Source: Patescibacteria group bacterium
GTDB lineage: Bacteria > Patescibacteriota > Patescibacteriia > Patescibacteriales > JBAZCA01
Reading direction: 5' to 3'
NCBI GenBank assembly: GCA_041661505.1
Contig: JBAZUF010000004.1
Span: 68,861-132,860, forward strand
Length of the DNA stretch: 64,000 nucleotides
The number at the start of each line of letters is the position of its first letter. The stretch's first letter is position 1. The notes beneath the pieces were generated by a model, which saw only the letters and a program-made list of their open reading frames with translations, was not told where the DNA came from and made no database searches. The position numbers and the translations under genes are program-made. Below are positions 13,461-39,952 of the stretch, in pieces.

Positions 13461-13497
13461 AAAACGCCCCGCATAATTATTATGCGGGGCGTTTTTT
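13461..13497. terminator. Bidirectional intrinsic terminator (rpsU / rel), carrying the CCCCGCA...TGCGGGG palindrome
   Basis: aaaacgccccgcataa-tta-ttatgcggggcgtttt forms a 16-bp stem with an A-run and a T-run on either side. Confidence 0.7.
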
Positions 13498-13532
13498 GCT
13501 GTAAGTTTTTTCAAAGCTCATTAAGGGAAAAT

Positions 13533-15017
13533 TTAACCTTTCATTCCCGGGATGTATTTTTTTATGCTTTTTAACTGTTCAAACCTGGAAGTCTTGACGA
13601 ATTGCTTTATCCGGCCCCGGGCTTTTCCCGTCTTGACGAATTTCAGCCAGTCTGAATTAGGGGATTTCCGATTTTTGTCGATAATGATTTCTACCAAATC
13701 GCCGTTTAAAAGTTCCGAATCGAGCGGCGCGATTTTGTCGTTCACCAAAGCCCCGACGCATTTATTTCCGATATCCGAATGGACTTCATAGGCAAAATCG
13801 ACCGGGGTTGAGCCTTCAGGCAAATCATAAACATCGCCTTTGGGGGTAAAAACAAAAATCCTATTTTTGAAAATATTAAACTTTAAGTCCTTGATGAAAT
13901 CGTGCGAAGTGACGGCGTGGCGCTGGATCTCTAAAATTTCTTTAACCCAAACCGGCTGGGAGGCGGCTATCTCTTTATGCCCGCCTTCTTTCTGCTTATA
14001 ATACCAATGAGCCGAGATTCCGTATAAAGCCTCTTCGTTCATCATCCGGTTTCTAATTTGGAATTCGGTCAATTTTCCGCCCGGACCGAAAACGGTCGTA
14101 TGCAAGCTCTGGTATCCGTTTGGTTTCGGCAGGGCGATATAATCTTTGAAGCGGTCTTTTTTCGGCTTCCATAAAGAATGGATGACGCCCAGGGTTTTAT
14201 AACAGTCCTCGATTGAATCGACGACGACCCTTAAAGCGAACACGTCCGAAATCTCGTTGAACTTCCGGTCTTTTATCTGCATTTTTTTATAGATGCTGTA
14301 CAGGTGCTTGAACCGGCCTTCAATTTCCGGGTTGATGCCGACTTTTTTCAGCTCGCGCCCCAAAAGGTTTTTTATTTTCTGGATGTACTGGTTGCGCTCG
14401 ACTTTCTTTTCCACTTCGTATATGTATTGGAGTTTTTTGTATTCTTCGGGATAAAGAAATTTAAAGCAGATGTCTTCCATCTGCCATTTTAATCTCCAGA
14501 TTCCCAAGAGCCCCGCGATCGGCGCGTAAATTTCCATAGTCTCTCTCGCGATCCGCTCCTGCTTTTCCGGCGGCAGGGCGTCAAGCGTCCGCAAATTATG
14601 CAGGCGGTCGGCAAACTTTATCAAGATAACGCGCAGGTCGTTGGCCATGGCGATAAACATCTTCCTTAAGCTCTCGAGATACCTTTCGACGCCGCGGTAT
14701 TTGATTTTTGATAATTTAGTAATGCCTTCGACCAATAAAGCGATTTCTTTGCCGAAATTTTTTTCAACGTCAGCCAGGCTGTATTCCGTATCCTCGGGAA
14801 CGTCATGCAAAATACCGGCGGCTATCGTATTGATATCCGCCTTCATTTGCGCCAGAATAAAAGCGGTATGGAGCGAGTGCTCAATATACGGGTCGCCGTT
14901 TTTCCTTTTTTGCCGGCCATGGGCTTTGTTGGCAAAATCAAAAGCCAGTTCCAATATATCCGTATCAGCCCTTTCATCATTTTCCTTTACTTTAGCGATT
15001 ATTTGGCCAATAGTCAT
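13533..15017 (-). CDS. relA: RelA/SpoT homolog, bifunctional (p)ppGpp synthetase/hydrolase, short form (HD + synthetase + TGS only)
   Basis: HD domain HDVPEDT, synthetase core PKPNGYQSLHTTV...FQIRNRMMNEEALYGISAHWYYK, and TGS IFVFTPKGDVYDLPEGSTPVDFAY. The protein ends about 45 aa after TGS (494 aa total). Confidence 0.9.
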   Translation of the reverse strand: MTIGQIIAKVKENDERADTDILELAFDFANKAHGRQKRKNGDPYIEHSLHTAFILAQMKADINTIAAGILHDVPEDTEYSLADVEKNFGKEIALLVEGITKLSKIKYRGVERYLESLRKMFIAMANDLRVILIKFADRLHNLRTLDALPPEKQERIARETMEIYAPIAGLLGIWRLKWQMEDICFKFLYPEEYKKLQYIYEVEKKVERNQYIQKIKNLLGRELKKVGINPEIEGRFKHLYSIYKKMQIKDRKFNEISDVFALRVVVDSIEDCYKTLGVIHSLWKPKKDRFKDYIALPKPNGYQSLHTTVFGPGGKLTEFQIRNRMMNEEALYGISAHWYYKQKEGGHKEIAASQPVWVKEILEIQRHAVTSHDFIKDLKFNIFKNRIFVFTPKGDVYDLPEGSTPVDFAYEVHSDIGNKCVGALVNDKIAPLDSELLNGDLVEIIIDKNRKSPNSDWLKFVKTGKARGRIKQFVKTSRFEQLKSIKKYIPGMKG

Positions 15018-15139
15018 ATGATTAGATAAGCTTTTACAATTAGATGTTTTGTGATACTATATTAGTATAAATTCGCGCCGCAGTCAAAGTGAACAAAGCC
15101 CGCGGGCTTATTATAAAAAAGAATTATTAAAAACAAATT

Positions 15140-15988
15140 ATGTATAATATAATTCCTTTGGTATTAATCATGATCAGCTTGAGCATAATGCTAAGCATCG
15201 TAGTCCGGAAATTCTCGGCGCTCGCCAATTTGGACATCGAGAGCATGCCGGCGGAAAAGGAAAGCCGTTTTAAAGAGCGGATTATTTCCAACCGCCTGAA
15301 AAGGAATTTAACGAAATGGGGCGCGAGCCTTATGAAGGTTTTACGCTTTATCGCCCAGAATTTAGGCAAGGGTTTTTCTTACGTTTTGAGCCGGCTGGAT
15401 AAAATGAAAGACAAATATCAGGAAGAAAGCATCTTAAACAAAAAGAAGCAGGGCGACCCGGGGAAGCTGGCCGAACAGCTATTCCTTGATGCCGACGCCC
15501 TAATTAAAGACGGGTCGCTCGAGGAGGCCGAAAAGAAATTTATTGAAATCATCAGCCTCCAAAGCCGCAGCCTAAAGGCCTTTAAAAAATTAGCCGACTT
15601 GTATATTCTGAAAAAACAATTTGACGAAGCCAAACAGACTCTCGAGCATATTCTAAAATTGATTGAAGATGAGGAAGTGGTTTTGATGAAGAGTAAGGAT
15701 GAAGGTTCGGAAGACCAGTTAAAAACCCTAAACCTCGAACGGGGACAGATCCACTTTGATTTGGCGTCGGTTTTTCGGGGAAAAGAAAATTTGGAACAAG
15801 CGGGCAAAAGCATGAAAGAAGCGTTAAAAATCGAGCCGTCCAATCCGAAATACCTTGACACCATGATAGAAATTAGTATAATGGGAAAAGATAAAATTGC
15901 CGCGCTGGACGCTTTTAAAGCGCTGGAAAAAGCCAACCCGGAGAACCAGAAATTGGCCGAATTAAAAGAACAAATTAGCGAGTTATAG
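15140..15988 (+). CDS. Membrane-anchored TPR repeat protein
   Basis: N-terminal TM segment (IIPLVLIMISLSIMLSIVV) followed by TPR-like helical repeats (EEAEKKFIEIISLQSRSLKAFKKLADLYILKKQFDEAKQTLEHIL...). Confidence 0.7.
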   Translation: MYNIIPLVLIMISLSIMLSIVVRKFSALANLDIESMPAEKESRFKERIISNRLKRNLTKWGASLMKVLRFIAQNLGKGFSYVLSRLDKMKDKYQEESILNKKKQGDPGKLAEQLFLDADALIKDGSLEEAEKKFIEIISLQSRSLKAFKKLADLYILKKQFDEAKQTLEHILKLIEDEEVVLMKSKDEGSEDQLKTLNLERGQIHFDLASVFRGKENLEQAGKSMKEALKIEPSNPKYLDTMIEISIMGKDKIAALDAFKALEKANPENQKLAELKEQISEL

Positions 15989-16067
15989 AATTAAAGCACG
16001 TAGCCTGATGTTGCGCGGCAGAAGCCGCGTATTGCGGATTACGTGTTGTATATTTTTACGAAATAAT

Positions 16068-16136
16068 GCCGGCGTAGCTTCCGCCGCAGGCGGACAGGCA
16101 GCTGGTACCCCATTTCCGCAGAGCATGGTTATGAGT
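16068..16136 (+). pseudogene. tRNA-Thr-derived 5' fragment with hairpin insertions
   Basis: Composition is gccggcgtagct, a 19-nt insert, cagctggta, a 16-nt replacement, then catggttatgagt. The segments align with positions 1-12, 13-21 and 31-43 of the adjacent tRNA-Thr. There is no 3' half. Confidence 0.6.
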
Positions 16137-16148
16137 AAAAAATAATAT

Positions 16149-16221
16149 GCCGACGTAGCTCAGCTGGTAGAGCAACTCCATGGTAAGGAGTAGGTCCGCG
16201 GTTCGAATCCGCGCGTCGGCT
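16149..16221 (+). tRNA. tRNA-Thr (anticodon GGT)
   Basis: Hand-folded cloverleaf of 73 nt: acceptor gccgacg/cgtcggc, D stem gctc/gagc, anticodon stem actcc/ggagt with loop atGGTaa, and T arm cgcgg-ttcgaat-ccgcg. No CCA is encoded. Confidence 0.9.
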
Positions 16222-16238
16222 CAAAAAACACTAAATAT

Positions 16239-16312
16239 CAGCTGGTACCCCGCAGATGCGGGGCATGGTAAGGAGTAGGTCTGCCCCGCAAAATGCGGGG
16301 CGCGTCGGCTCA
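16239..16312 (+). pseudogene. tRNA-Thr-derived 3' fragment with stems replaced by GC-rich hairpins
   Basis: Composition is cagctggta, ccccgcagatgcgggg, catggtaaggagtaggtc (exact match to the tRNA), tgccccgcaaaatgcgggg (in place of the T arm), then cgcgtcggctca (exact 3' acceptor). Confidence 0.6.
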
Positions 16313-16317
16313 AGCAA

Positions 16318-16348
16318 AAACATCCTAAAACTAGGATGTTTTTATTTT
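16318..16348 (+). terminator. Intrinsic terminator closing the tRNA-Thr transcription unit
   Basis: aaacatccta-aaac-taggatgttt hairpin followed by ttattttg. Confidence 0.65.
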
Positions 16349-16361
16349 GCCGTGCCCGGAA

Positions 16362-16390
16362 TTGACAGCTTGGTCGTTTTTTGTTATATT
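16362..16390 (+). promoter_or_regulatory. Putative promoter TTGACA-17 nt-TATATT for the small membrane protein/lipoprotein/DUF2207 genes
   Basis: TTGACA at 16362-16367 and TATATT at 16385-16390. Confidence 0.45.
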
Positions 16391-16502
16391 TATTCGTTAT
16401 TCCTGCACATTTAAATAGGGTTAAAAATGAAACCAAATTTTATTATTGGTACTAGAATAGGGTATGAATTGGACAATTCAATTCAAGTTAAGGAGGAGAA
16501 AA

Positions 16503-16736
16503 ATGTTTTCTGTCTTTGTTCAGGTAATGCGCTGGGGGATCAAACCCCGGGGCGAAAATGAAAACCGGGGACGGTTTTACCTTCGAGCCGTCTTGGTTCA
16601 GTCGGCAAAGACGGCCGTAGTGGGCCTGGCAATCTCTTGGCTGGCCGCAGAATATGTTTCATTTACTGTTGCCGTAGCAATTTTTATTTGCTTCGTAGCG
16701 ATCGGCGTTATATTAGGGCTGGCCGTTTGCGGCTGA
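16503..16736 (+). CDS. Small membrane protein, unknown function
   Basis: ATG 16503 is preceded by AAGGAGGAG. The 77-aa product has two hydrophobic segments. The track start at 16464 lacks an RBS. Confidence 0.5.
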   Translation: MFSVFVQVMRWGIKPRGENENRGRFYLRAVLVQSAKTAVVGLAISWLAAEYVSFTVAVAIFICFVAIGVILGLAVCG

Positions 16737-16806
16737 TTAGTTAATGTTTTTTAACCAATTAAGAACACCTCGTTTTTCAACGGAAAGGAGTGTAGTGGTG
16801 AATAAA

Positions 16807-17139
16807 ATGTTGAGAGTGCTGGTTACGGCTGTTTTTATCGCCGGAGCTTCCATGCTTTCCGGCTGTGCCGGATTGGACCAGAGCCCGGACGGGAGGCAAT
16901 TCCAGCAAACCCCCGGAAAGCCAGCTGTTTCGCCGGCCGAACCAACCAAAAAAGCTCCGGTAACAATGGCCAGCCGCGGAGCCCAATCCAGGGCTTCTGG
17001 CACGGCGGCCTTTAACCCATTTACCTCTTTCCCGCGGCAGGCGGACTTCTGCTCCGATGGGAGAGAGTTATTCGGCTATGGCCGGGAAAAAAAACCGGCC
17101 AATTCTGACGTGGTCACTCCGCTTCCATACGAGAGGTGA
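16807..17139 (+). CDS. Putative lipoprotein, unknown function
   Basis: MLRVLVTAVFIAGASMLSGC carries a lipobox (LSGC) after a signal-like segment. AAGGAG lies upstream of ATG 16807. The mature part is Pro/Ala/Ser-rich. Confidence 0.6.
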   Translation: MLRVLVTAVFIAGASMLSGCAGLDQSPDGRQFQQTPGKPAVSPAEPTKKAPVTMASRGAQSRASGTAAFNPFTSFPRQADFCSDGRELFGYGREKKPANSDVVTPLPYER

Positions 17140-17268
17140 CCGCGTTAAGTTCGACCCGGAGGCTTGCGGCTGAAATCGCAAGTCCCCCGGGTTTCTTTAT
17201 TATTTGGCCAGGCTTAACACCCGGCTATTTTTTTTGTATAATGGAAGCGCTAACAATAAGGGAAATTT

Positions 17269-19062
17269 ATGTTAAATAAAAATGGGTCATTAAGTATTGT
17301 CTGCGCGGCGATTTTTGCCGCCTTTTTATTTTTTCCGTTAATATCAGCCTTTGCCCAGCCTCCAACGAGTGCCGCAATAATATCAAATGATCTACCGGCA
17401 GAAAGCGCTATACGCCAAAATGTTTCTGACTGGTATATAAAAAATTTCGATTCGAAAATAATCGTTAACAAGGATTCAACTTTGGACATAACCGAAGATA
17501 TTACGGCTGATTGCGGTACAGTAAGCGGAAAACACGGAATTTTCCGGATTCTGCCCGAGCGGATTAAGTTTAGTAACGGAGGCGCTATCAATACGCCGGT
17601 GGAACTCATAAGCATAACCGATTTTTCCGGCCGGAGTTTAAAATACTCGGAATCAAGAAACTTTTTCGACCGCACCGTCACCTGGAAAATCGGCGACCCG
17701 AAAAGGGAAGTCCAGAGCGTTAATAACTACCGGATCCATTATTTAGTAAAAAATGTTATCCGTTTTAATAAAGATTTCGACGAACTGTACTGGAATTTAA
17801 ACGGCAATTTTTGGGATTTGGAAACCGATCATTTCCACGCCAATATTATCTTTCCGGGCGAAGTGAATGAAAATAACAGCACCGTCGACTATTATACCGG
17901 GGCGCTCGGAAGCAAGTCCAAAGATTCAGCCGAGTATAAATGGAGCGTGGCGAGCACTTTAGAGTTTAATAGCACAAAAACTCTTTATAACCGGGAGGGT
18001 ATTACCGCTTCAATAATTTTCCCGAAAAATATTTTTACGACTTACCAGGCCGGATTTTTAGAGAGCTATGGCCAATATGCCTGGCTCATTATTCCGTTAA
18101 TTGTCTTTATCGTCTGCTTCCGCTTATGGTGGAAATACGGTAAAGACCCAAAAATGGACAAATCCATTATCCCCGAATACGAGGCGCCGGGAAAGCTCGC
18201 GCCGATGGAACTCGGGATGCTTATGACCAACGGCCGGTTTAGTAATAAATTAATTACGGCGGAAATAATTAATTTGGCCACGAAAAAATTAATCACCATA
18301 AAAGAGATTGATAATAAGATTTTGGTTTTCCATTCCAAGGATTTCGAATTGACGAAAAATTCTTCCCCCGATGCTGAAAGAATATTGACGCCGGCTGAAA
18401 AGGCGATTCTTGAAAGGATTTTTTTGGATGGAGATACGGTGAAGCTATCCGACTTAAAGAATGATTTTTACACCGCGATAAAATGGATTAAAGACAAGGC
18501 GCTTGGGCTTTTGGAAGAAAAGAAATTGTTAGTCGCTTCCAGCCGGCGCTACAGTATCGGCATGATAGTTATTGGCGCAATTCTTATTCCCGCCGCTTTT
18601 GTTTTTGCCGGCTGGTCGATATTTTTAAGCGCGAGCCTTATCGTCTCCGGAACAATCATTTTGATTTTCGGAGCAATAATGCCTAAAAGGACTTTAGCCG
18701 GAGCGGAATTAAACTGGGAAATAAAAGGTTTTAGAATGTTCATGGAAACGGTAGACAAGCACCGGGCCGAGTTTTACGAAAAAGAAAATATATTTGAAAA
18801 GTTTTTACCCTACGCCATAGTCTTTGGCATTACCGGGCTGTGGATTAAAAAAATGAAAGATATTTACGGCGAGGATTTTTATCGGACTTACGCGCCGGTT
18901 TGGTTTATCGGCAATATGGGCTCGTTTGACGCGGACAGTTTGAACGGCGCGATTTCCGGGCTATCGTCTTCAATCGCCTCAAACACTTCTTCGCCTTCTG
19001 GTTCCGGAGAAGCGGGAGGGGCTGGCGGTGGCGGAGGAGGCGGCGGTGGCGGAGGATGGTAA
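17269..19062 (+). CDS. DUF2207 domain-containing membrane protein
   Basis: Signal peptide, an N-terminal ...YIKNFDSKIIVNKDSTLDITEDITADCGTVSGKHGIFRILP... pattern, central TM helices, and a C-terminal poly-Gly tail (GGAGGGGGGGGGGGW). All are typical of the family as I remember it. Confidence 0.8.
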   Translation: MLNKNGSLSIVCAAIFAAFLFFPLISAFAQPPTSAAIISNDLPAESAIRQNVSDWYIKNFDSKIIVNKDSTLDITEDITADCGTVSGKHGIFRILPERIKFSNGGAINTPVELISITDFSGRSLKYSESRNFFDRTVTWKIGDPKREVQSVNNYRIHYLVKNVIRFNKDFDELYWNLNGNFWDLETDHFHANIIFPGEVNENNSTVDYYTGALGSKSKDSAEYKWSVASTLEFNSTKTLYNREGITASIIFPKNIFTTYQAGFLESYGQYAWLIIPLIVFIVCFRLWWKYGKDPKMDKSIIPEYEAPGKLAPMELGMLMTNGRFSNKLITAEIINLATKKLITIKEIDNKILVFHSKDFELTKNSSPDAERILTPAEKAILERIFLDGDTVKLSDLKNDFYTAIKWIKDKALGLLEEKKLLVASSRRYSIGMIVIGAILIPAAFVFAGWSIFLSASLIVSGTIILIFGAIMPKRTLAGAELNWEIKGFRMFMETVDKHRAEFYEKENIFEKFLPYAIVFGITGLWIKKMKDIYGEDFYRTYAPVWFIGNMGSFDADSLNGAISGLSSSIASNTSSPSGSGEAGGAGGGGGGGGGGGW

Positions 19063-19121
19063 AACTGGATGCGGATATTTGGATAAGAGGCAGTTCTATC
19101 TTTTTTAAACGCAAAAATAAA

Positions 19122-19144
19122 AGGCGCTCAAATAGCGTCTTTTT
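19122..19144 (+). terminator. Intrinsic terminator after the DUF2207 gene
   Basis: aggcgct-caaat-agcgtct (one G-T pair) followed by TTTT. Confidence 0.5.
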
Positions 19145-19159
19145 AGTTAAAAAATGGTG

Positions 19160-19203
19160 GGCGGGCTCCTTCCTCAAGGGAGACCCGCCGTTTTGTTGTT
19201 TTG
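19160..19203. terminator. Bidirectional GC-rich terminator between convergent units
   Basis: ggcgggctcc-ttcctcaag-ggagacccgcc (10 bp with one bulge). It is followed by gttttgttgtttt on the + strand and by attttttaac on the minus strand. Confidence 0.6.
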
Positions 19204-19275
19204 GTTCTGGGAGTAGGGCTAGTCCCTTCTCCAATCAGACCAATCGCTACCGCGACCGCGGAAAAAGAGCGGACG

Positions 19276-19419
19276 TCATCCGCCGTCGATGAGGACACGG
19301 AACTCGCCCCCTCCGACTTTTCGCCCACCGAGAACGCGATGGCGTTTGAGCATGGCCAGCGTGTCTTTTCCCAGTCCCAGCTCTTCGAGCCGGGACATGC
19401 CGTAATCGTAAGCGGTCAT
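19276..19419 (-). CDS. 47-aa ORF, possible excisionase/MerR-type HTH protein (absent from the ORF track, below its length cutoff)
   Basis: AGGAGG lies 6 nt upstream of ATG 19419, starting 4 nt after the aminotransferase stop. The peptide is MTAYDYGMSRLEELGLGKDTLAMLKRHRVLGGRKVGGGEFRVLIDGG. LGLGKDTLAMLKRH...GG.EFRV resembles the helix-turn-helix plus wing pattern of HTH_17-type proteins. Confidence 0.4.
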   Translation of the reverse strand: MTAYDYGMSRLEELGLGKDTLAMLKRHRVLGGRKVGGGEFRVLIDGG

Positions 19420-19435
19420 TTATTGCCTCCTGCGA

Positions 19436-20614
19436 CTAGCTGGCTTTTGCAAGCGCGGGATCTCTGACGAAAACGCGCGATTCTTGGCTGGCTTCTGATA
19501 TCGTTTTAATCGCCAGCTTATTGCCTTCAACTGTGTTGCTCCCGACCGGGAGTCGGGTTAGAAAAATGTTTCTGGCTTGGTAATACGCCCGGCGGTCAGG
19601 GGTGACGCAGTTACTGGCGTCAACGATTTTTACTGGGTGTTTTGCCACTTCGCGGATGAATTTTTCCGGGCTGGTAATACCCGGAATCTGAAGCAGGTTG
19701 AAGAAACCAGCATCCATCTTCCTGTGGCCGGGCATAAATTTGTCGAGCGCTTGATTATGCGCCTTCCTTCTGGCCGGATATATTTTGTGAAGGCAAGGAA
19801 TGAGAGTATTGTCCAGGATTCCGTTTTCCATAATCTCCAGTATTTGTGCCTGGACCAGGAAGTTGGTACAGAGGAAGGTGTTGGCGTTTAAGTGGGTGAA
19901 CAGGTCCAAATATTTTTGGTCGGCCAGGATTATACCGCCCGACCTCAACGCGGGAGTCCCGCCCGCCTTTGAATCTGAAACGATAAAGGACGTGCCCGGG
20001 CAGGCGTCAAATGGGAAGGCTTTGTAGCGCGGTAATTCGTCTTCATCAGCCGGAACCTCAAGGTAGGCGATATCAAGGGCGTGGAAAAATTTGCCTACGG
20101 CGCGTTCGGAAACCTTGATGATATTCTCGAATGGCGTCAGGATTCCGGTCGGATTTCCAATGAGCCCCTGGTACAGCGCGGCAACCTGGTTGTGCTTCAG
20201 GCAGTAATCCAGGTGGTCTAAATCCATGCCTTCGTCGGTAAGCCTTACGCCGATGACGGTAAGATCATGAATCTTCGCCGCTTGGAGAAAGCGATCGTAG
20301 GTGAATTCTTCAGCCAGGATTACTCCTTTCCTTGGCATTTTTTTAACAGCCAGAAGAATGGATTCGATAGCCCCCATCCCTCCGTGCGTCACGACCCATC
20401 GCCTCCAGTCTTCGATGCCGTAACGATCGGCCTTTGCCAGTCGCAAAGCGAACATGCCGTTATTGTCGCTCCAGTCGGCGGTAGGATATTGTCCGACCTT
20501 CGGTCCGTGCTTCTCCACCATTTCCCTCGGTGATGGCAGATCCAGGAGGGTTCTTTCTACGACAACGTCGTTTGGTTTTCCCCTCGTACCATCAAACAAG
20601 AAATCCGTGCTCAT
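19436..20614 (-). CDS. PLP-dependent aminotransferase, class I/II fold
   Basis: IGNPTG motif and Lys motif SDSKAGGTPALRSGG (S-x-S-K...R-x-G). ATG 20614 is preceded by AAGGAG, while the track start at 20665 has no RBS. Confidence 0.8.
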   Translation of the reverse strand: MSTDFLFDGTRGKPNDVVVERTLLDLPSPREMVEKHGPKVGQYPTADWSDNNGMFALRLAKADRYGIEDWRRWVVTHGGMGAIESILLAVKKMPRKGVILAEEFTYDRFLQAAKIHDLTVIGVRLTDEGMDLDHLDYCLKHNQVAALYQGLIGNPTGILTPFENIIKVSERAVGKFFHALDIAYLEVPADEDELPRYKAFPFDACPGTSFIVSDSKAGGTPALRSGGIILADQKYLDLFTHLNANTFLCTNFLVQAQILEIMENGILDNTLIPCLHKIYPARRKAHNQALDKFMPGHRKMDAGFFNLLQIPGITSPEKFIREVAKHPVKIVDASNCVTPDRRAYYQARNIFLTRLPVGSNTVEGNKLAIKTISEASQESRVFVRDPALAKAS

Positions 20615-20974
20615 GAAATACTCCTTTGTCAGTCTTGGGGTTAATTCCAGAGTTATGTATTTCACGCATGTTTAAATGCGGTTAAAAAAGTTTTGTAAAG
20701 GGCAATCTCCTTTCTATATTTAAAATCAAGGTTCAAAAAATTTCGAACCTTAACATAGATTATGCTTTTAAATTAAGGTAAAGTCAAGCCTCTAAAGACT
20801 GGCTTTAAGAGACGCAATTTAATATATGAGTTAAATCGTGATCAAGCTGATAGCTAATAATATGGTCAGAGCTATATTGTTCAGCTTTAGAATTTTTGGT
20901 ATAATTAAAAAAATACCATAATTTATTATATTTCTCGTCCCGCCATTAGACGGCTGGGGCTTGCAAAAAAAAGT

Positions 20975-22809: not shown

Positions 22810-22815
22810 CAAGAA

Positions 22816-30199: not shown

Positions 30200-30241
30200 T
30201 ATCCGCCGGACGGCGGAAAAATAAAATAGGAAATTGCCAAT

Positions 30242-32322: not shown

Positions 32323-32394
32323 GCCTTCGTCGTTCAATGGATAGGACGCAAGTTTCCGGAACTTGTGATGCAGGTTCGATTCCTGCCGAGGGCA
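32323..32394 (+). tRNA. tRNA-Arg (anticodon CCG)
   Basis: Acceptor gccttcg/cgagggc (one G-U pair), D stem gttc/ggac, anticodon stem caagt/acttg with loop ttCCGga, and T arm gcagg-ttcgatt-cctgc. 72 nt. It lies between the two permease genes. Confidence 0.9.
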
Positions 32395-32429
32395 CAAAAA
32401 TTCACGGCTCTTTAGAGCCGGAAATTTTT

Positions 32430-32500
32430 GTTCTTCGGCGGTTGCGAGGACCTGCCGTTTTGCAGGGGGCTTCCGCCCCTTCGATTCCTGCCGAGGGCAC
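32430..32500 (+). pseudogene. tRNA-Arg-derived tRNA-like fragment (no anticodon arm, 13-nt hairpin inserted in the T stem)
   Basis: The 21-nt sequence ttcgattcctgccgagggcac occurs exactly twice (32375-32395 and 32480-32500). Here it is preceded by gcagg plus the insert gggcttccgcccc, a degenerate D-arm (..ggac) and a degenerate acceptor 5' strand (ttcttcg). Confidence 0.55.
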
Positions 32501-32504
32501 CAAT

Positions 32505-33761
32505 ATGTTTTCATCCCTTAAAACCGCCTTTAAGTCTTTACGCACCAACAAGGGCCGAACGGCTTTGGCGATTTTAGGCATAGTAATCGGCATAGCGTCG
32601 GTCATAATAGTCTTCTCGGCCGGCGAGGGAATCCGCCATCTGATTATCGGGCAGGTAGAATCCTTTGGAACCAATATTATTGAATCAGAGCCGCGGGTGC
32701 CGAAAAAAACCGCTAAAGGAAGAGCCTCGGACACCGAACAGGGCATGGCGGCGGCTCAAGGCGTCCAGGTTACTTCCATGAAATTGAAAGATATGGATGA
32801 TATTGATAAATTGCCGAACGTAAAAGAAAGCTATGGCGCGGTTTTAGGCCAGGAGCAGGCCAGCTACGGCAATGAACTTAAAAAAGTTTTTGTCGAAGGA
32901 GTAAGCGCGAGCTACATTGACATTGACCAAAGCGAAATCGACTCCGGCCGTTTTTTTACCGATGCCGAAGACCGCTCATTGGCCGAGGTGGCGGTTCTTG
33001 GTTCGGAAATCAGTAATCAGCTGTTCGGCGATTCTGACCCTTTGGACAAGTGGATAAGGGTAAGAAAACAAAAATTCCGGATTATCGGCGTCTTAAAAGA
33101 ACGGGGTTCAATGGGCGGAGTAATGAATTTCGACCAATTTGTTTTTATCCCGCTTCGCACCCTGCAAAAAAAGATTATGGGCATTGACCATGTATTATAT
33201 ATGATCCATGAGCTAAATGACGTAAGTCTGGCAGATGAAACCGCCGCCGAAATAAAAACGATTTTAAGAACCAATCATAACATCACCGATCCGGACCGGG
33301 ATGATTTTGCCGTTACTACCATGGCCGAGATGATGAAAATTTTGGGGACTGTTACCAACGCCATTACCCTTTTACTTCTAACTATTGTCGCCATATCATT
33401 AGTCGTCGGCGGCGTTGGCGTTATGAATATTATGTACGTAATGGTTTCCGAGCGGACGCCGGAAATTGGATTGCGCAAATCAATCGGCGCGAAATTTTCG
33501 GATATCATGGGCCAGTTTTTGTTTGAATCAATCCTTATCACCCTTACGGGCGCGATTGTGGGAATCGTTCTCGGGGTGTTATTATCATTTTTAATCGCGC
33601 TCGCGGCCAGAGGCTTTGGACTGGCCTGGGAATTTGCCGTTCCGCTTCGCGCTTATCCCGTGGCCATAGGTTTTTCTTTATTATTCGGCTTGGCCTTCGG
33701 CCTGTATCCGGCGAGGAAGGCGGCGCGTCTTGACCCGGTTGAAGCTTTGCGCCGCGAATAA
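32505..33761 (+). CDS. ABC transporter permease, MacB-PCD + FtsX type (paralog 2)
   Basis: The family-typical N-terminus MFSSLKTAFKSLRTNKGRTALAILGIVIGIASVI starts at ATG 32505, and the FtsX motif is LVVGGVGVMNIMYVMVSERTPEIGLRKSIGA...PVEALRRE. The track start at 32337 would read through the tRNA gene. Confidence 0.88.
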   Translation: MFSSLKTAFKSLRTNKGRTALAILGIVIGIASVIIVFSAGEGIRHLIIGQVESFGTNIIESEPRVPKKTAKGRASDTEQGMAAAQGVQVTSMKLKDMDDIDKLPNVKESYGAVLGQEQASYGNELKKVFVEGVSASYIDIDQSEIDSGRFFTDAEDRSLAEVAVLGSEISNQLFGDSDPLDKWIRVRKQKFRIIGVLKERGSMGGVMNFDQFVFIPLRTLQKKIMGIDHVLYMIHELNDVSLADETAAEIKTILRTNHNITDPDRDDFAVTTMAEMMKILGTVTNAITLLLLTIVAISLVVGGVGVMNIMYVMVSERTPEIGLRKSIGAKFSDIMGQFLFESILITLTGAIVGIVLGVLLSFLIALAARGFGLAWEFAVPLRAYPVAIGFSLLFGLAFGLYPARKAARLDPVEALRRE

Positions 33762-33839
33762 GGCAAAGTTGCCGGATAGCCAGGCAAAGGATGGATGCGT
33801 GGGCGGTAATACAGGGACAGAGTAAAAAGACCGGCGGTA

Positions 33840-33867
33840 TTGAAAAGTTAGGATTAAGTGCTATAAT
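33840..33867 (+). promoter_or_regulatory. Putative promoter TTGAAA-16 nt-TATAAT in front of the tandem hairpin leader
   Basis: TTGAAA at 33840-33845 and TATAAT at 33862-33867. Confidence 0.45.
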
Positions 33868-33999
33868 CGCATTGAGTGAGGAAATGGAGCTTGCTCCAAT
33901 TTCCGAGCGAAGAAGACTATGTCTTTTTGACATAATCGCATTGAGTGAGCCCCGCACCATGCGGGACGAGCGAACAAGACTATGTCATCGGACATAATC
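33863..33999 (+). repeat. Tandem modular repeat (69-nt and 62-nt units), each with conserved arms and a different internal hairpin
   Basis: ataatcgcattgagtgag occurs at 33863 and 33932, and ataatc again at 33994. gagcgaa(g/c)aagactatgtc occurs at 33905 and 33968. The variable hairpins are ggaaatggag-cttg-ctccaatttcc and ccccgca-cca-tgcggg. The conserved hairpin gactatgtc-N4/5-gacataatc appears twice. Confidence 0.7.
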
Positions 34000-34054
34000 T
34001 AAAACGGTTTATTTAAGTAAAAATTGATGGGACCGGCATTTTGTCCCATATTTT

Positions 34055-36178
34055 ATGTTTTACCGCAAAGAGAAAAAAATAGATTTTTCCAAAGCTTTTG
34101 AAAAAGTTAAGGACGAAGCGGCCGATATTGGCGAGCTGGCAAAAATTGAGGCAAAAGAACTCGTTTCGTACGTAAAAAACCAGGAAGAAAAAATCGTATC
34201 CGAAGCCAGGGAAATCTATAGCGAAGCGCCGCTGGTTAAGAAAAAAAAGCAAAGAATTAAGGCGGCTAAAATCGTCCGGCTGGCCGCGCCGCTTTTAATC
34301 GGTTTTTTTGCCTTGTTCATAATTCTCGCCGGCATTTCTTTTTGGATGTTCGCGAAGATCTATTTTGAAGCCATGCGCGGCAAAGCCAATATCGAGCAAT
34401 CGGTCGCCTTCATTGGGCAGGGCGATTTTGAAAGTTCAATATCCTTTTCCAAACAAGCCGAAATAAATTTCAAGAACGCGCTCATCATGGCCAATGAAAT
34501 GGACGGGAGCGCCATAAAATACCTGCCGCTTATCGGCTCATCGGTTTCGGACGCTAAATATCTTCTTTCCACCGCCAGCATCTTAAGCCGCACTGTTACC
34601 GAAGGCGTTACAATTTCTAAAGGCATGGAGAGCTTGGTTAAAAAATCAAGCGCCAGTTTTTCAAAGTTCACTCCGGAAGAAAAAGGAAAAGTGCTTGCCT
34701 ATCTTTACCAAAGCTCCCCGGAACTGGTCGGGCTAAAGGCCAACCTTGATTTAGCCAGCCTGAACCTGGAAAAAATAAAATTTTCATTTCTTTTGTTTCC
34801 GATAAAAGGCAAAATTGAAAGCTTAAAAGAGCGCCTGGATCTGGGGCGGGAAATTTTAGAGCGGGCGATTCCGGCTTCGAAATTTTTACCCGAACTGGCC
34901 GGTTTTCCCGAAAAAAGGCGCTTTCTGTTTCTGCTCCAGAATTCCGACGAGCTCCGGCCTACCGGAGGATTTATCGGCAACTACGGAATCATCGAAACTC
35001 AAAACGGCGATATTGTCCGGTTCGACACCGACGACTCCTATCATCTTGATATGCCGGTCAAAGATAAATTGAATATCGATCCGCCGGCGCCGGTAAAAGA
35101 ATATCTGGCTAAGAAATGGTATTTTAGGGATTCTAACTGGCAGCCGGATTTTACCGCGGCCGCGAAGACGTCTGAATGGTTTTTTAAGCAGGAGTCCGGG
35201 CTGGCTCAAAGCAAGGAAAATACGGATTTTTCCGGAATTATCGCCATCACTCCGAAATTCATCACTGATTTATTGGCCATTACCGGACCGATTATCCTTG
35301 AGGGGCATGAATACAACAAAGACAATTTTTCCGAGCTTTTGGAATACCGGGTGGAAATGGGCTACAAGGAAATGGGGGAGTCTTCCTGGAACCGCAAACA
35401 GATGGTGGGAAAAATCGCCAATGAGCTGAAGACAAGGATTTTCGACCTGCCGATGGACCGCTGGGAAGAAATTTTTAAAGCCATAGCCAACAATATCGAT
35501 GAGAAAAATATTTTGGTCTACTTTAATGATTGCGACTTGGAAGAGCTGGCGGTCGAAGAGGGAATTGCCGGCGAGCAGAAAGCGGCCGATAACGATTATT
35601 TAATGGTCGTTGATTCCAATATGGGCTCGTTTAAGACCGATTCAGTAATGAATAAAAATATAATCTATAAGCTGGAAGAAAAAACCGGCGGCCTGTTCGC
35701 CAAAGTTACCGCCTATTATTCCCATCAGGGGACCAGAGACTGGCGGACAACCGATTACCGGACTTATACCAGGGTTTACGTTCCGCAGGGTTCAAGGCTG
35801 GTGAGTTCCGAAGGCTTTTTAAGCGAAGTTACGGCCGGACAGGACGAGGATTATATTGTTCAAACTTGCTCCAAAACCGAAAAAGACAAGATGTTCTTCG
35901 GCGGATTCTTGAAAATCGCGCCGGGAAAAATCGGGAATTTTACCATCGAATACCAGTTGCCGGACAGACTGTACAGGAAATTAGACCAGGGAGAATATAA
36001 ATTAACCCTGCAGAAACAGCCGGGCAACCGGGTATCAGAAGTCCAGGTGGATATAAAACCGGACCGGACTATAAAAGCCTACATCCCGACCGGATTTTCC
36101 GCGGACAAAATTTCAAGCGGCGAAATCATCTGGAAAACGGATTTAACTACGGACAAGTCTTTTGAGGTGAAATTATAA
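34055..36178 (+). CDS. DUF4012 domain-containing membrane-anchored protein
   Basis: N-terminal TM segment and the motif FLFLLQNSDELRPTGGFIGNYGI, which I recall as the DUF4012 hallmark (N-x-E-L-R-x-T-GG). 707 aa, with an envelope-locus context. Confidence 0.75.
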   Translation: MFYRKEKKIDFSKAFEKVKDEAADIGELAKIEAKELVSYVKNQEEKIVSEAREIYSEAPLVKKKKQRIKAAKIVRLAAPLLIGFFALFIILAGISFWMFAKIYFEAMRGKANIEQSVAFIGQGDFESSISFSKQAEINFKNALIMANEMDGSAIKYLPLIGSSVSDAKYLLSTASILSRTVTEGVTISKGMESLVKKSSASFSKFTPEEKGKVLAYLYQSSPELVGLKANLDLASLNLEKIKFSFLLFPIKGKIESLKERLDLGREILERAIPASKFLPELAGFPEKRRFLFLLQNSDELRPTGGFIGNYGIIETQNGDIVRFDTDDSYHLDMPVKDKLNIDPPAPVKEYLAKKWYFRDSNWQPDFTAAAKTSEWFFKQESGLAQSKENTDFSGIIAITPKFITDLLAITGPIILEGHEYNKDNFSELLEYRVEMGYKEMGESSWNRKQMVGKIANELKTRIFDLPMDRWEEIFKAIANNIDEKNILVYFNDCDLEELAVEEGIAGEQKAADNDYLMVVDSNMGSFKTDSVMNKNIIYKLEEKTGGLFAKVTAYYSHQGTRDWRTTDYRTYTRVYVPQGSRLVSSEGFLSEVTAGQDEDYIVQTCSKTEKDKMFFGGFLKIAPGKIGNFTIEYQLPDRLYRKLDQGEYKLTLQKQPGNRVSEVQVDIKPDRTIKAYIPTGFSADKISSGEIIWKTDLTTDKSFEVKL

Positions 36179-36194
36179 AACCGGAAAGGGAAAT

Positions 36195-37214
36195 TTGAAA
36201 AAATTTATGTTTATTAAAAGAGTCGGAATTGATTTAGGGACAACATACACGCTGGTTTACCTGCCGAAGCGCGGGATTGTAATAAACGAGCCTTCGGTCG
36301 TCGCGGTATCTATGGTGGACCGGAAAGTTTTGGCAGTGGGGAATGAAGCCAAGGATATGCTGGGCCGGACTCCGGACACGATTATCGCCCTGAAGCCGTT
36401 AAAAGACGGCGTGATTGCCGATTATCGGACTACCGAGGCGATGCTTAGGTATTTTATCAATAAAGCTACCGGCGGGATAAAACTTTTTCGGCCCGAAGTT
36501 ATGGTAGCCGTACCGGCGGGAATATCATCAACCGAGCGGCGCGCCGTAATCGACGCCACTATTGCCGCCGGCGCCAAAGCCGCCTACATAATTAAAGAGC
36601 CGGTGGCGGCCGCGATCGGCGCCGACATCCCGATCGGCTCGGCTTCAGGGCACATGATAATCGATATCGGCGGCGGAACTTCGGAAATGGCGGTAATATC
36701 TTTGGGCGGAATCGTCACCTCAACTTCAGTCCGGGTCGGCGGCAATAAATTCGACGCGGCCTTAATCGAATTTATCAGAAGAAAATATAATTTGGCGATC
36801 GGCGAGCGCACGGCCGAAGACGTAAAAATAAATATCGGATCGGCTCTATACTTGGAAGACAAACTAACCATGGAAGTCCGGGGCCGCGATTTAATAACCG
36901 GACTGCCGCGCACTATCACCGTGAAATCGGATGATGTTACCGAGGCCATCCAAAATGAACTGGAAGCGATCGTCAATTCGGCTAAAAGAGTCTTGCACGA
37001 CACGCCGCCGGAATTAGCCGCCGATATTATGGACAAGGGGATCGTTATGTCCGGCGGAAGCTCACTTTTGCGAAATATCGACCAGCTGGTCTCCCGGACC
37101 ACCGGCGTTCCGGCTTACGTCGCTGATGATTCGCTTTTATGCGTCGCTAAAGGAACCGGAATCGCGCTAGATAATTTGGATTCATACAAAAGATCTATCC
37201 TGGCTACTAAATAA
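36195..37214 (+). CDS. mreB: Rod shape-determining protein MreB
   Basis: GIDLGTTYTLVY, NEPSVVA, DIGGGTSEMAVISLGG and GIVMSGGSSLLRNID motifs. The start is either TTG 36195 or ATG 36207. Confidence 0.93.
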   Translation: MKKFMFIKRVGIDLGTTYTLVYLPKRGIVINEPSVVAVSMVDRKVLAVGNEAKDMLGRTPDTIIALKPLKDGVIADYRTTEAMLRYFINKATGGIKLFRPEVMVAVPAGISSTERRAVIDATIAAGAKAAYIIKEPVAAAIGADIPIGSASGHMIIDIGGGTSEMAVISLGGIVTSTSVRVGGNKFDAALIEFIRRKYNLAIGERTAEDVKINIGSALYLEDKLTMEVRGRDLITGLPRTITVKSDDVTEAIQNELEAIVNSAKRVLHDTPPELAADIMDKGIVMSGGSSLLRNIDQLVSRTTGVPAYVADDSLLCVAKGTGIALDNLDSYKRSILATK

Positions 37215-37220
37215 TATAAA

Positions 37221-38525
37221 ATGTTAATTGGCATTGACGCGTCCAGGGCAAACCGCGAGCACCGAGGAGGGCCTGAATGGTATTCGTACTACTTGATAAA
37301 ATACTTTGCCCGCCTGGACAAAAAAAACCAATATATCCTTTTTTCCGACCGGCCGCTTACCGGCGGGCTTATGGATTTGACATGCCCGGAGCTAGCAAAA
37401 AATCCGGCCGGCGAAATAAAATTAGACCGCAGAGGCTTTCAGGCTATAAAGAGTCCCTATAATAATTTCCGGGCCAAGGTTCTTTCCTGGCCTTTTAATT
37501 TTTTATGGACTCAAGGCCGGCTGTCGATTGCGATGCTAAAAAGAAAAATTGTCCGGCTGGACGCCCTTTTTATTCCGGCCCACACATTGCCTTTTTTCCA
37601 CCCCGGCCGATCGATTGTTACTATCCATGATATCGGCTTTCAGCATGACCGCCGCTTTTATGATTTTGAGCGGGAAGGACCGGAAAACCTCCGGGTCCAA
37701 AGCCTAACCGACCTTTTCGTCCGGATTTTTACTTTAGGAAAATATGGGGCCAATTCTTTAGACTACCAAAACTGGGCGGTAGGTTATGCTTTACGGCACG
37801 CGAAAATAATCCTTTGCCCGTCCGAATTTACTAAAAAAGAGATCATGAGGATTTATAAGGCGCGGGGAGAAAAAATTAAAGTTATCGCTAATGGCTATAA
37901 TAATGAAGCTTATAACGCCGAGGCCAGCGCAACCCGCGTTGCGGCGGCTTTGGAAAAATACGGCCTAAAGAAGCCGTATTTTTTTTATTGCGGCCGCCTG
38001 GAAAGAAAGAAAAATATTTCCGCTTTGGTTGAAGCCTACGGGATCATGAAAAATAAGCATCCCGAGGTAGAGCATAAATTGGTCCTGGCCGGAGACGCCG
38101 GATCCGGTTATGATGAAGTGAATTTTATGGCTTCCGAGTATGACGTGGAAAAGGAGGTAATTATGACGGGCTGGGTTGAAGAAAGGGATTTGCCGTTTTT
38201 ATATAAGGGCGCCGACGCCTTTGTTTTTCCGTCGCGCTATGAAGGCTTCGGCATTCCGCTTTTGCAGGCTATGGCGACCGGCATTCCGATTGCCGCTTCT
38301 GATTTTGGTCCGATTCCTGAAGTAGTCGGCGACGCGGCGTTGTTTTACAATAGTGAAGATCCCTACGCCATGGCCGAGCGCCTTTATGAAATAATAATTG
38401 ACCAGGAATTAAGGAAAAAATTGATTGCCCGGGGGCTTTCGCGGGCCAAGGATTTTAGCTGGGAAAAATGCGCCCGGGAGACGCTTGAAATTATCGAAGG
38501 CTTGGCCAGACGAAATATCAGTTGA
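37221..38525 (+). CDS. Glycosyltransferase family 4 (GT-B)
   Basis: C-terminal E-x7-E region FPSRYEGFGIPLLQAMATGIPIAASDFGPIPEVVGDAA. Confidence 0.85.
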   Translation: MLIGIDASRANREHRGGPEWYSYYLIKYFARLDKKNQYILFSDRPLTGGLMDLTCPELAKNPAGEIKLDRRGFQAIKSPYNNFRAKVLSWPFNFLWTQGRLSIAMLKRKIVRLDALFIPAHTLPFFHPGRSIVTIHDIGFQHDRRFYDFEREGPENLRVQSLTDLFVRIFTLGKYGANSLDYQNWAVGYALRHAKIILCPSEFTKKEIMRIYKARGEKIKVIANGYNNEAYNAEASATRVAAALEKYGLKKPYFFYCGRLERKKNISALVEAYGIMKNKHPEVEHKLVLAGDAGSGYDEVNFMASEYDVEKEVIMTGWVEERDLPFLYKGADAFVFPSRYEGFGIPLLQAMATGIPIAASDFGPIPEVVGDAALFYNSEDPYAMAERLYEIIIDQELRKKLIARGLSRAKDFSWEKCARETLEIIEGLARRNIS

Positions 38526-38559
38526 CAGAATTTTTAGATGTGGTAGTATAATAATAATC

Positions 38560-38685
38560 AGCCGCAGAAAGCAGGCGCAGAGGTAAGTCCTGCCGAGGCA
38601 AAAACATTCGGATTTTAGGATGTTTGTTGTACTCGCACTGTGGTTATCCACAGTTTTTTATTTAATCTAAGCTAAATTTTAAAAT
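38560..38685 (+). promoter_or_regulatory. Probable ribosomal protein L10 leader / attenuator
   Basis: TTGACA (overlapping the GT4 stop) and TAGTAT/TATAAT lie upstream. The structured leader (gcagg...cctgc and aaacat...atgttt helices) ends in the hairpin ctgtgg-ttat-ccacag plus TTTTTT (38638-38659), 27 nt before the rplJ ATG. Confidence 0.4.
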
Positions 38686-39216
38686 ATGCCAAAAACCAGA
38701 GAGCAAAAATCGGAAATTTTAAGGACCCTAATAGAAAAAATAAAAAAATCCAAATCTTTATTTTTCACCAAATACACCGGCATGACGGTGGAAGACAGTG
38801 AAAAGTTAAGGAATGATTTGAAAAAAAACGACGCGGAATTTTTAGTAGCTAAGAAAACTCTTATTAACCTGGCTTTAAAAGAAAATAAGATTGAGGGAGT
38901 GGACGCGAAGGCGCTTGACGGCCAGGTAGGTTTGATTTTCGGCTACGGCGATGAGATCGTCCCGGTAAGGGAAGCCGACAAGTATGCCCGGGAAAAGGAT
39001 GCTAAGCTCCAGTTTTTGGCCGGCATCTTAGACGGGAAACTGATTAGCGCTATGGAGGTAAAGCAGTTAGCAAATCTGCCTTCCAAACAGGAATTGTATG
39101 CCAGGCTTGTCGGATCGATTAATTCTCCTGTTTCCGGATTCGTAAACGCCTTAGCCGGCAACATTCGGAATTTGGTTTATGCCTTAAAAGCGATTGAGGA
39201 AAAAAAGACCAGTTAA
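38686..39216 (+). CDS. rplJ: 50S ribosomal protein L10
   Basis: 176 aa with a typical L10 N-terminus (REQKSEIL...LFFTKYTGMTVEDSEKLRNDLKK), followed by rplL. Confidence 0.93.
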   Translation: MPKTREQKSEILRTLIEKIKKSKSLFFTKYTGMTVEDSEKLRNDLKKNDAEFLVAKKTLINLALKENKIEGVDAKALDGQVGLIFGYGDEIVPVREADKYAREKDAKLQFLAGILDGKLISAMEVKQLANLPSKQELYARLVGSINSPVSGFVNALAGNIRNLVYALKAIEEKKTS

Positions 39217-39332
39217 TATAATTAACAATTTAATATAATTAATTTACAATTAGCTTTAAAAGCATTTTTAATAATTACGAATTAATGAATTATTGAAAAT
39301 TGCGAATTGATAATTGATAATTAAAAAACAAT

Positions 39333-39779
39333 ATGGCAGACGAAATCAAAAATCCCGCCTCCGAAACTGCGGCGGGCAAGGAAGAAACTCCGGTCGAAGT
39401 GCCGGAAAAATTCAAAACTTTAGTTGAAACCGTCGAAAAAATGTCGGTGCTCGACTTGGCCGAATTGGTCAAAATTTTAGAAAAGAAATTCGGCGTATCC
39501 GCCGCCGCTCCGGCTATGATGATGGCCGCGCCGGGCGCCGGAAACGGAGCCCCGGCCGCTGAAGAAAAGACCAGCTTTGACGTTGAGATTACCGAAGCCG
39601 GCGCCAATAAAATCGCCGTCATTAAAGTAGTCCGCGAAGTCACCGAGATGGGATTAAAAGACGCTAAAGACTTGGTTGACGGAGCCCCGAAAATGATCAA
39701 AGAAGGCATAAAGAAAGAGGATGCCGAGGCTATAAAAAAGAAATTGGAAGAAGCCGGCGCCAAAGTAACTTTAAAATAA
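39333..39779 (+). CDS. rplL: 50S ribosomal protein L7/L12
   Basis: [21 protein letters not shown], an Ala-rich hinge, and C-terminal [52 protein letters not shown]. Confidence 0.95.
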
Positions 39780-39798
39780 GGCTACAACCGCAAGTTTT

Positions 39799-39832
39799 AA
39801 AACACCCTGCTTATTTTGAGCGGGGTGTTTTG
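39799..39832 (+). terminator. Probable terminator after rplL
   Basis: aacaccc...gggtgtt stem followed by ttg. The T-run partly lies within the stem. Confidence 0.5.
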
Positions 39833-39901
39833 CATATTGCAAGCCATAAAATAATAAAATTGTCCGCGAAAAAAATTTCGGAACAGTCTGTTATTTTTCT
39901 A

Positions 39902-39952
39902 ACAAAATTTCAAACTCCCCCGCAAATGCGGGGTCAAACAGTGAAATTTTGT
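39902..39952. repeat. Composite nested hairpin containing the CCCCGCA...TGCGGGG palindrome
   Basis: Outer 11-bp stem acaaaatttca (39902-39912) pairs with tgaaattttgt (39942-39952). The inner stem is ccccgc-aaat-gcgggg (39918-39933). The element sits between convergent rplL and the 753-aa gene. Confidence 0.55.

Follow-up and report, generated by a model that had tools for sequence, protein, structure and literature searches.

Patescibacteria genomes are tiny and gene-dense. The window considered here, a 64,000-nt stretch of DNA from a Falkowbacteria-like Patescibacteria metagenome-assembled genome, is 91% coding on a rough gene map, with an intergenic share of 5,981 nt (9.3%). Within that share lies a short GC-rich hairpin, CCCCGCA-loop-TGCGGGG, in five copies. 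Identical contigs extend the examined genome from 64 kb to 82.8 kb and supply copies 6 and 7 beyond the right end of the window, which brings the count for this longer stretch to seven, all of them intergenic. The loci compared with the window (designated L with a number) comprise 80 genome loci anchored on Rel, 80 metagenome loci anchored on MreB and five loci anchored on DUF4012, about 2.4 Mb in all. The copies, and the larger structures that hold them, are these:

13460-13497 (stem 13467-13489), no strand: copy 1, aaaaacGCCCCGCA-taattatta-TGCGGGGCgtttttt, a bidirectional intrinsic terminator
16240-16312, plus strand: 5'-truncated tRNA-Thr(GGT) copy, from the D loop to the 3' end, host of copies 2 and 3
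16248-16263, plus strand: copy 2, CCCCGCA-ga-TGCGGGG, in place of the D-stem 3' strand and the anticodon-stem 5' strand (GAGCAACTC)
16283-16301, plus strand: copy 3, GCCCCGCA-aaa-TGCGGGGC, occupying the T-arm place of the truncated tRNA-Thr copy
33869-33937 (unit A) and 33938-33999 (unit B), plus strand: tandem mini-element of two-hairpin units, about 65 nt each
33950-33965, plus strand: copy 4, (C)CCCGCA-cca-TGCGGG, six pairs, the core hairpin of unit B
39902-39952, no strand: composite hairpin with an 11-bp AT-rich outer stem (39902-39912 with 39942-39952), internal loops and a GC apex
39918-39933, no strand: copy 5, CCCCGCA-aa-TGCGGGG, the apex of the composite hairpin
L165 12526 (about 64367 in window-equivalent coordinates), opposite orientation: copy 6, GAGCGAGAG-CCCCGCAggaTGCGGG-ACGAGCGAA, followed by an AT-rich hairpin
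L165 15261: copy 7, a CCCCGC-aatga-GCGGGG variant within a 14-bp stem, in the ftsL/ftsI spacer

An exact search for CCCCGCA-N(2-10)-TGCGGGG returns four matches (13467-13489, 16248-16263, 16284-16300 and 39918-39933), with loops of N(2-9); 100 dinucleotide-preserving shuffles of the window contain none. Relaxing the stem to the 6-bp CCCGCA-N-TGCGGG adds 33951-33965, for a total of five against 0.06 expected; in this copy the C at 33950 stands opposite an A, which leaves six pairs, as in the spelling first given for it. It is the pairing that is unusual, as the word CCCCGCA is not itself over-represented: the two strands together hold ten occurrences, near the expectation of about 11, and nine of the ten lie within the hairpins. 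Outside the hairpins CCCCGCA/TGCGGGG occurs once, against about 11 expected from the shuffles, which are not codon-aware; the word might be avoided in coding DNA, or codon usage alone might account for its rarity. An explanation of the kind offered for DNA-uptake sequences is ruled out by the ordinary frequency of the 7-mer.

All five window copies are intergenic once spurious open reading frames at 16221-16436 (minus strand), 33791-33997 (plus strand) and 33544-33960 (minus strand) are discounted. Among eight GC-rich perfect intergenic hairpins (13467 having been added by hand), five carry the CCCCGCA stem and two the stem TCCGCC/GGCGGA; among 31 GC-rich hairpins in coding DNA, none carries the CCCCGCA stem in the same polarity. 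The initial annotation had proposed both that the recurrence is non-random and that every copy is intergenic, and on both points it is borne out. Chance, or a compositional artefact, is effectively refuted as a source of the pattern: no shuffle in 100 gave any match, against four to five observed, and each copy fell in the small non-coding part of a window that is nine-tenths coding.

A single small inserted element accounts for copies 4 and 6, which are homologous: they have in common flanks of about 30 nt (GAGTGAG...ACGAGCGAA; L165 12500-12560 for copy 6) and a second, AT-rich hairpin. Copy 4 belongs to a tandem in which each unit takes the form GCATTGAGTGAG-core hairpin-CGAGCGAAnAAGACTATGTC-loop-GACATAATC. 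The core of unit A is another one, GAAATGGAGCTTGCTCCAATTTC; otherwise the two units are identical save for one flank substitution and a loop that is one base shorter in the second hairpin. The tandem has been inserted right after the -10 box (33862-33867) of the promoter of the DUF4012 gene. That promoter, TTGAAA-16-TATAAT, scores 11/12; its gcTATAATc is conserved at four orthologous loci, and in an alignment of the window with these four the insertion is present in the window only, an insertion polymorphism with respect to the sister genomes. Each unit ends in ATAATC, and thus regenerates the sequence at the point of insertion. Copy 6, about 0.4 kb beyond the end of the window, precedes a gene of the TsaD family (Pfam PF00814) by 11 nt. 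The flank motifs of the mini-element have no match in any of the fetched loci or in IMG/VR and are unique to this genome; Rfam returns nothing at E<=10 in 33700-34100.

Several other identities for the tandem were considered and rejected. A conserved leader or riboswitch upstream of DUF4012 is one, the element being absent from all orthologous loci and the promoter alone conserved. TIGR stem-loop arrays have an adjacent gene for a Nop-domain Tas protein and tandem units with variable dual spacers (PMC12045711); here there is no Nop/Tas gene, the neighbours are MacB and DUF4012, and the two units, the only ones present, have identical ‘spacers’. A hammerhead-like reading of the GAG-hairpin-CGAA flanks fails on inspection of the core, and Rfam is silent.

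Copies 2 and 3 lie in a truncated tRNA-Thr copy that starts 17 nt past the real tRNA-Thr (16149-16222) and is followed by a terminator at 16317-16349. Copy 2 folds at -12.7 kcal/mol, with no U-tract, and copy 3 at -16.9 kcal/mol. The two are 36 nt apart, start to start, much as a pair in L091 (3010/3043); as each is a perfect palindrome, their relative orientation is undefined. With one stem common to both hairpins, a long-range nested fold is also open to the tRNA-Thr copy. The same truncated copy is found in L002 (Rel 89% identical), at 8745-8817 on the minus strand, and is absent from L037 (Rel 87%). At the T-arm position L002 has GCCCCGCA-gtt-TGCGGGGC, the 8 bp kept and the loop different from that of the window at 3/3 positions; at the anticodon-arm position it has a TCCCGCC..GGCGGGA stem. 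The proposed link of the hairpin to degenerate tRNA copies is real, and a sister species conserves one such hairpin. The 3' acceptor strand of the copy matches the tRNA of its own genome, CGTCGGC in the window and CAACGGC in L002; this tracking suggests gene conversion, or else that the copy pairs, within the precursor, with the 5' strand of the tRNA.

Two further features of the window carry a second recurrent stem, TCCGCC/GGCGGA, which has two matches (16080 and 30202) against 0.09 expected:

16068-16135, plus strand: upstream degenerate 5' part of tRNA-Thr (tRNA copy 1), with TCCGCC-gca-GGCGGA (16080-16094) and a disrupted CCCCGCA hairpin, CCCCATTTCCGCAGAG
30202-30217, plus strand: TCCGCCG-ga-CGGCGGA, between HlyD-like and ABC ATPase genes, its stem common with 16080-16094

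Neither L002 nor L037 has the upstream tRNA-Thr part.

The degenerate tRNA copies are most simply taken as att-type scars of integrative elements, an origin that for the tRNA-Thr copy would rest on analogy. Direct repeats of tRNA 3' parts are present, in the tRNA-Thr copy and at tRNA-Arg; no integrase lies at the tRNA-Thr site. The tRNA-Arg(CCG) gene (32323-32395) lies between two MacB/FtsX genes, and 84 nt downstream is a 21-nt repeat of its 3' end (32480-32500). Tyrosine-integrase islands are found directly upstream of the second MacB gene, the interval that in the window holds tRNA-Arg, in L164 (4863-8602), L171 (1674-2486) and L172 (1858-2694); the tRNA-Arg itself is visible only in L164 among the three. 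The tRNA-Arg/MacB site is an integration hot spot, and the window appears to hold an att-type scar there. A tRNA-Gln in L131 has a similar 3' repeat, and L095 has a Y1_Tnp (RAYT-like) gene (462-998) between its two MacB genes. Two of the integrase islands (L164 4950-5250 and L171 660-900) have in common a non-coding stretch (…ttcggatatcccgagttagacgatgtgtgcgag…gagcgagcacattttgtctaacg…) that is conserved, GC-rich and full of GCGAGCGAAGCGAGC-type motifs, which resemble the flanks of the mini-element in the window.

Copy 5 forms the apex of a composite hairpin located between the rplL terminator (about 39805-39832) and the stop codon of a convergent 753-aa gene (40006). The whole folds at -22 kcal/mol (z -6.5), and folding confirms the 11-bp AT-rich outer stem that had been described around 39918. 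L162 (DUF4012 65% identical) keeps the outer stem and the flanks at over 90% identity but has as its apex GCTCGGCTTCGCTTCGCTCT, which forms no hairpin. More distant relatives (L164, L171) lack the composite element altogether. Identity above 90% extends over the spacer 3' of rplL (39850-39985, compared with L162 15915-16045), although the DUF4012 proteins are only 65% identical. This suggests that the spacer is a constrained non-coding element, a small RNA or the terminator of the convergent gene, whose apex is free to vary.

Copy 1 is of another kind. It lies between the convergent rpsU-like (13151-13447, plus strand) and rel/spoT (13533-15017, minus strand) genes, and folds at -28.4 kcal/mol on the plus strand and -27.3 on the minus (z about -6.9), with a run of A before and a run of T after. 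It is an ordinary intrinsic (Rho-independent) terminator, and the sole copy to fit that definition, a GC hairpin followed by a U-tract. Orthologous terminators occupy the same site in L002 (GCGCCCCGCG-attt-CGCGGGGCGC) and L037 (GCCCCGA..GGGACTG), with stems that have drifted. Unlike copy 1, the other four window copies (16248, 16284, 33951 and 39918) and both copies beyond the window lack a U-tract; their contexts are 5' untranslated regions (UTRs), a tRNA trailer upstream of a separate terminator, and an operon spacer. As RNA, the stem-loop of each copy folds at -12 to -17 kcal/mol. The earlier contention that these are not five independent terminators thus holds for four of the five, which have no U-tract and sit inside larger structures, but not for 13467.

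The stem is popular in its own right, well beyond this phylum. In phage contigs, GCCCCGCA-N(2-5)-TGCGGGGC occurs 121 times, 93 of them terminator-like. The 18-mer with a GA loop is found in 104 contigs, whereas three palindromes of matched composition are found in 45, 22 and 3; redundancy among related prophages may have inflated the figure of 104. This popularity makes convergence less improbable than was first assumed: the initial estimate of chance recurrence treated all 7-mers as equally likely stems, whereas this exact stem is a generically popular terminator hairpin.

Among relatives the hairpin is unevenly spread. L091 has five copies in 13 kb, L048 two and L002 one; the other loci show only a few 6-bp variants (L021, L117, L132) across about 2 Mb, and L162, L164, L171, L172 and L037 have none. 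The MreB-anchored metagenome loci include no close relative (MreB identity at most 90%). Some hairpins are identical between genomes: CCCCGCAAATGCGGGG and CCCCGCAAAATGCGGGG are common to the window and L091, GCCCCGCAAAATGCGGGGC is found in L091 as its reverse complement, and CCCCGCAGATGCGGGG is in the window and L091, with a loop-inverted form in L048. Likewise the 16-mer of copy 2 is present in L091, and L048 has a loop-inverted form of it with a G...C extension.

Each copy in L091 and L048, two other Patescibacteria, sits as the inner core within a larger repeat, TGTC-AT-xyC-GA-(variable core)-GA-Gy'x'-AT-CT. The outer stem of this TGTC repeat covaries: with pairs chosen regardless of complementarity, 19/21 are complementary, of seven types (TG/CA, TT/AA, CT/AG, TC/GA and CC/GG among them). 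Among the TGTC cores of the two loci are 16-19-mers identical to those of the window, two of them in loop-inverted or reverse-complement form, and two different TGTC subfamilies of L091 have the hairpin at their core. The repeats often form inverted pairs about 100 bp apart. They are widespread (L008, L013, L019, L034, L042, L045, L048, L088, L091 and others, and IMG/VR loci L173-L292), occur in more than 120 contigs of IMG/VR, and correspond to no Rfam family. In the window there is no GTCATnnCGA-type site with a hairpin. Some relatives also have dRS3-like GTCATTCCCGCGAAGGCGGGAATCC units. Two further GC mini-hairpins, TCCGCC(A)..(T)GGCGGA and CCTGCC(TGCC)GGCAGG(CAGG), recur across genomes and contexts, sometimes as TGTC cores (L007, L034, L035, L067, L133; L002, L007, L011, L021, L044, L045, L055, L164).

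How do these hairpins compare with described elements? In REP/REPIN-RAYT systems, repetitive extragenic palindromes (REPs) that are GC-rich and have a unit of 20-40 nt are mobilised in trans by a RAYT, a Y1 HUH enzyme (Nunvar 2010; Bertels & Rainey 2011, PMC3116915). The window hairpins resemble them as extragenic GC palindromes in many copies, with a conserved stem and varying loops, in transcribed spacers and sometimes as doublets; REPs, too, can act as terminators or mRNA stabilisers. The differences are that only a 7-8 bp stem is conserved, as against a 20-40 nt unit, that no GTAG tag is found, and that several copies replace parts of other structures and are not free-standing. The initial annotation had suggested either a dispersed REP-like element or a shared protein- or RNase-recognition hairpin, and had advised looking for a cognate protein of the RAYT/TnpA(REP) or another type. 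REP membership is unproven: extragenic copies are many, but loops and flanks differ, with neither a conserved unit nor a tag of the GTAG or CGTC type. Pfam scans of about 40 window proteins brought up no such cognate protein, and no RAYT was seen in the 83 kb of this genome that were covered. When the fetched loci were searched by tblastn with RayT of E. coli, followed by Pfam, Y1_Tnp genes emerged in L095 and L083 only, not flanked by the hairpin. Upstream of the window in the same genome (L168 1-5234, about 4.6-9.8 kb before the window start) is a cluster of defence or mobile type, with GmrSD/HNH, RhuM, T5orf172 and an EcoRI-type methylase, and after it a UvrD-PDDEXK helicase-nuclease (5368-8418); the cluster has no hairpin copy.

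A closer relationship exists for the host elements in the relatives. The family of CGTC/TGTC-tagged repeats includes Neisseria dRS3/NIME and Rickettsia RPE (Di Nocera et al. 2013, PMC3733652); canonically these have a stem of 8-9 bp with a loop of 4-5 nt, a terminal (C/T)GTC tag, a stem starting with AT and a short unpaired tail (PMC3733652). The L048 and L091 elements share the TGTC tag, the AT-start stem, the head-to-head dimers about 100 bp apart and the lack of an adjacent transposase; as in dRS3, their outer arms are conserved and their centre is variable. On these features of sequence they fit the TGTC-REP superfamily, and the window copies, without tag or AT-start outer stem, do not; the nested inner hairpin also departs from the canonical form. 

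A more distant analogy is with the GC clusters of mitochondria, GC-rich palindromes of 30-40 nt that invade AT-rich spacers and variable regions of structural RNA genes. The window hairpins are likewise small GC-rich palindromes in AT-rich spacers and at variable positions of structured RNA genes; however, the mitochondrial units are larger and belong to another domain of life, and insertion signatures of that kind are not in evidence here. At gathering score, Rfam covariance models recognise no family in the window apart from tRNAs; in L002, L021 and L048 they find nothing of relevance. A hairpin from a CRISPR I-E-like repeat was rejected, there being no array in the window and no cas-like genes among the proteins scanned. 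Searches of the literature with sequence words (GTCATTGCGAG and others) matched primers by coincidence only, and no report of REP- or MITE-like repeats (miniature inverted-repeat transposable elements) in Patescibacteria was found.

The account that seems to us best, with a probability of about 0.5, supposes two processes: a generically favoured GC-clamp hairpin, and an increase of its copies by small palindromic elements and local duplication. CCCCGCA-loop-TGCGGGG would be a compact, very stable and interchangeable block in the non-coding DNA of this Falkowbacteria-like lineage. The stem would be favoured as a common intrinsic-terminator stem across phages and bacteria, and such favour would account for the terminator copy at 13467 and for part of the recurrence between genomes. 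Copy number would then have been raised by the mini-element, the tRNA-Thr doublet and the apex of the AT-rich palindrome at 39902-39952; increase by an element or by duplication is established in the case of copies 4 and 6, while for the tRNA-Thr doublet it is plausible. At the DNA level these would be miniature insertions of the REP or MITE type, mobilised in trans by an enzyme presumably encoded outside the window; the obvious candidate would be a RAYT-like transposase of the Y1/HUH type, genes for which are found in related genomes. At the RNA level, a copy with a U-tract (copy 1) would terminate transcription; those in 5' UTRs, tRNA trailers and operon spacers most likely serve, to judge from their positions, as a structural barrier or stabiliser.

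Several observations weigh against this two-process account. Copies other than 4 and 6 share only the 7-8 bp stem and differ in loops and flanks; common descent is thus not demonstrable for them. No transposase, integrase, Nop-domain protein or RAYT was found among the window proteins scanned. Target-site duplications are not established, save for the regenerated ATAATC at the tandem units. The hairpins in the pseudo-tRNA and at 39918 replace sequence, for which ordinary transposition gives no account. None of 154 viral TGTC cores in IMG/VR is the CCCCGCA hairpin, which is therefore not a fixed or intrinsic part of the TGTC family, and the phage count that speaks for a generic preference may be inflated by the redundancy mentioned above. 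Sequence replacement, the turnover of loops relative to L002 and the difference in core between units A and B are not fully explained, and give room to a model in which a recognition hairpin is selected or, on a more speculative view, to one in which the palindrome itself is installed.

Pure convergence would have each copy arise independently, as one of the best short stable hairpins with a C-rich 5' arm and a G-rich 3' arm, with no mobility or shared recognition. Such an origin would suit the spread of the stem as a terminator in unrelated phage contigs, where it is over-used relative to composition-matched palindromes; copy 1, an orthologous terminator whose stem is drifting by compensatory change; and the differing loops and flanks of most copies. 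It seems unlikely as the whole story: the stem is carried by most of the intergenic GC-rich hairpins of the 64-kb window (5/8), whereas the typical terminators of the genome use others; copies 4 and 6 are demonstrably one element; and the numbers in four genomes, 7, 5, 2 and 1, are uneven. Selection might instead install the stem wherever a processed end or a barrier is useful, for recognition by a lineage-specific RNase or a protein binding RNA or single-stranded DNA (ssDNA). The stem is perfectly conserved while loops vary, the 8 bp of the pseudo-T-arm persist between the window and L002 with a wholly different loop, and copies lie in transcribed spacers. Yet no candidate protein has been identified, a palindromic stem with loops of 2-9 nt offers little for sequence-specific recognition, and REP-like elements or hairpin-driven mutation predict the same pattern; shared recognition is quite unlikely on this balance.

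A more radical proposal makes the 16-19-nt palindrome itself a mobile or templated unit that replaces the apex of existing hairpins, through template switching or a hairpin-specific nuclease and repair. The hairpin does occupy the variable apex or arm of three kinds of host structure, with sequence replaced and not added; it forms the core of two TGTC subfamilies in L091; and units A and B differ in little besides their core hairpin. For every case, though, there is a simpler alternative (different master copies in tandem, independent insertions, drift), the sample is small, and to our knowledge no such mechanism has been described for a unit of 16-19 nt; overwriting is accordingly a long shot. 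The same low odds attach to its fullest form, a ‘homing hairpin’ that propagates by overwriting an apex or arm by means of a hairpin-specific ssDNA nuclease or template-switch repair. Finally, the inverted repeat might be the core-type site of tRNA-targeting tyrosine integrases, left behind in att scars, as two copies in a partial tRNA-Thr duplicate, the 21-nt tRNA-Arg 3' repeat and the integrase islands upstream of the second MacB gene in L164, L171 and L172 could suggest. This is highly improbable: a recombinase core requires an overlap of fixed length, and the arms here stand 2 to 9 nt apart depending on the copy; five copies (1, 4, 5, 6 and 7) are away from tRNA genes; and the integrase islands of the relatives carry other hairpins.

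If it is true that the hairpin can be mobilised or installed alone, repeat-element biology would have a new lower size limit, and a homing hairpin would be smaller than any mobile or convertible DNA module so far described from bacteria. If it is not, the case counsels caution, as identical short GC stems in spacers can mix a generic preference in terminators with a few real copies of an element. Miniature hairpin elements are reshaping the intergenic DNA of this genome: one is present in duplicate in the 5' UTR of a cell-surface gene, and others have rebuilt tRNA-derived sequences. This remodelling bears on regulation and genome plasticity in these symbionts, and provides a handle for strain typing.

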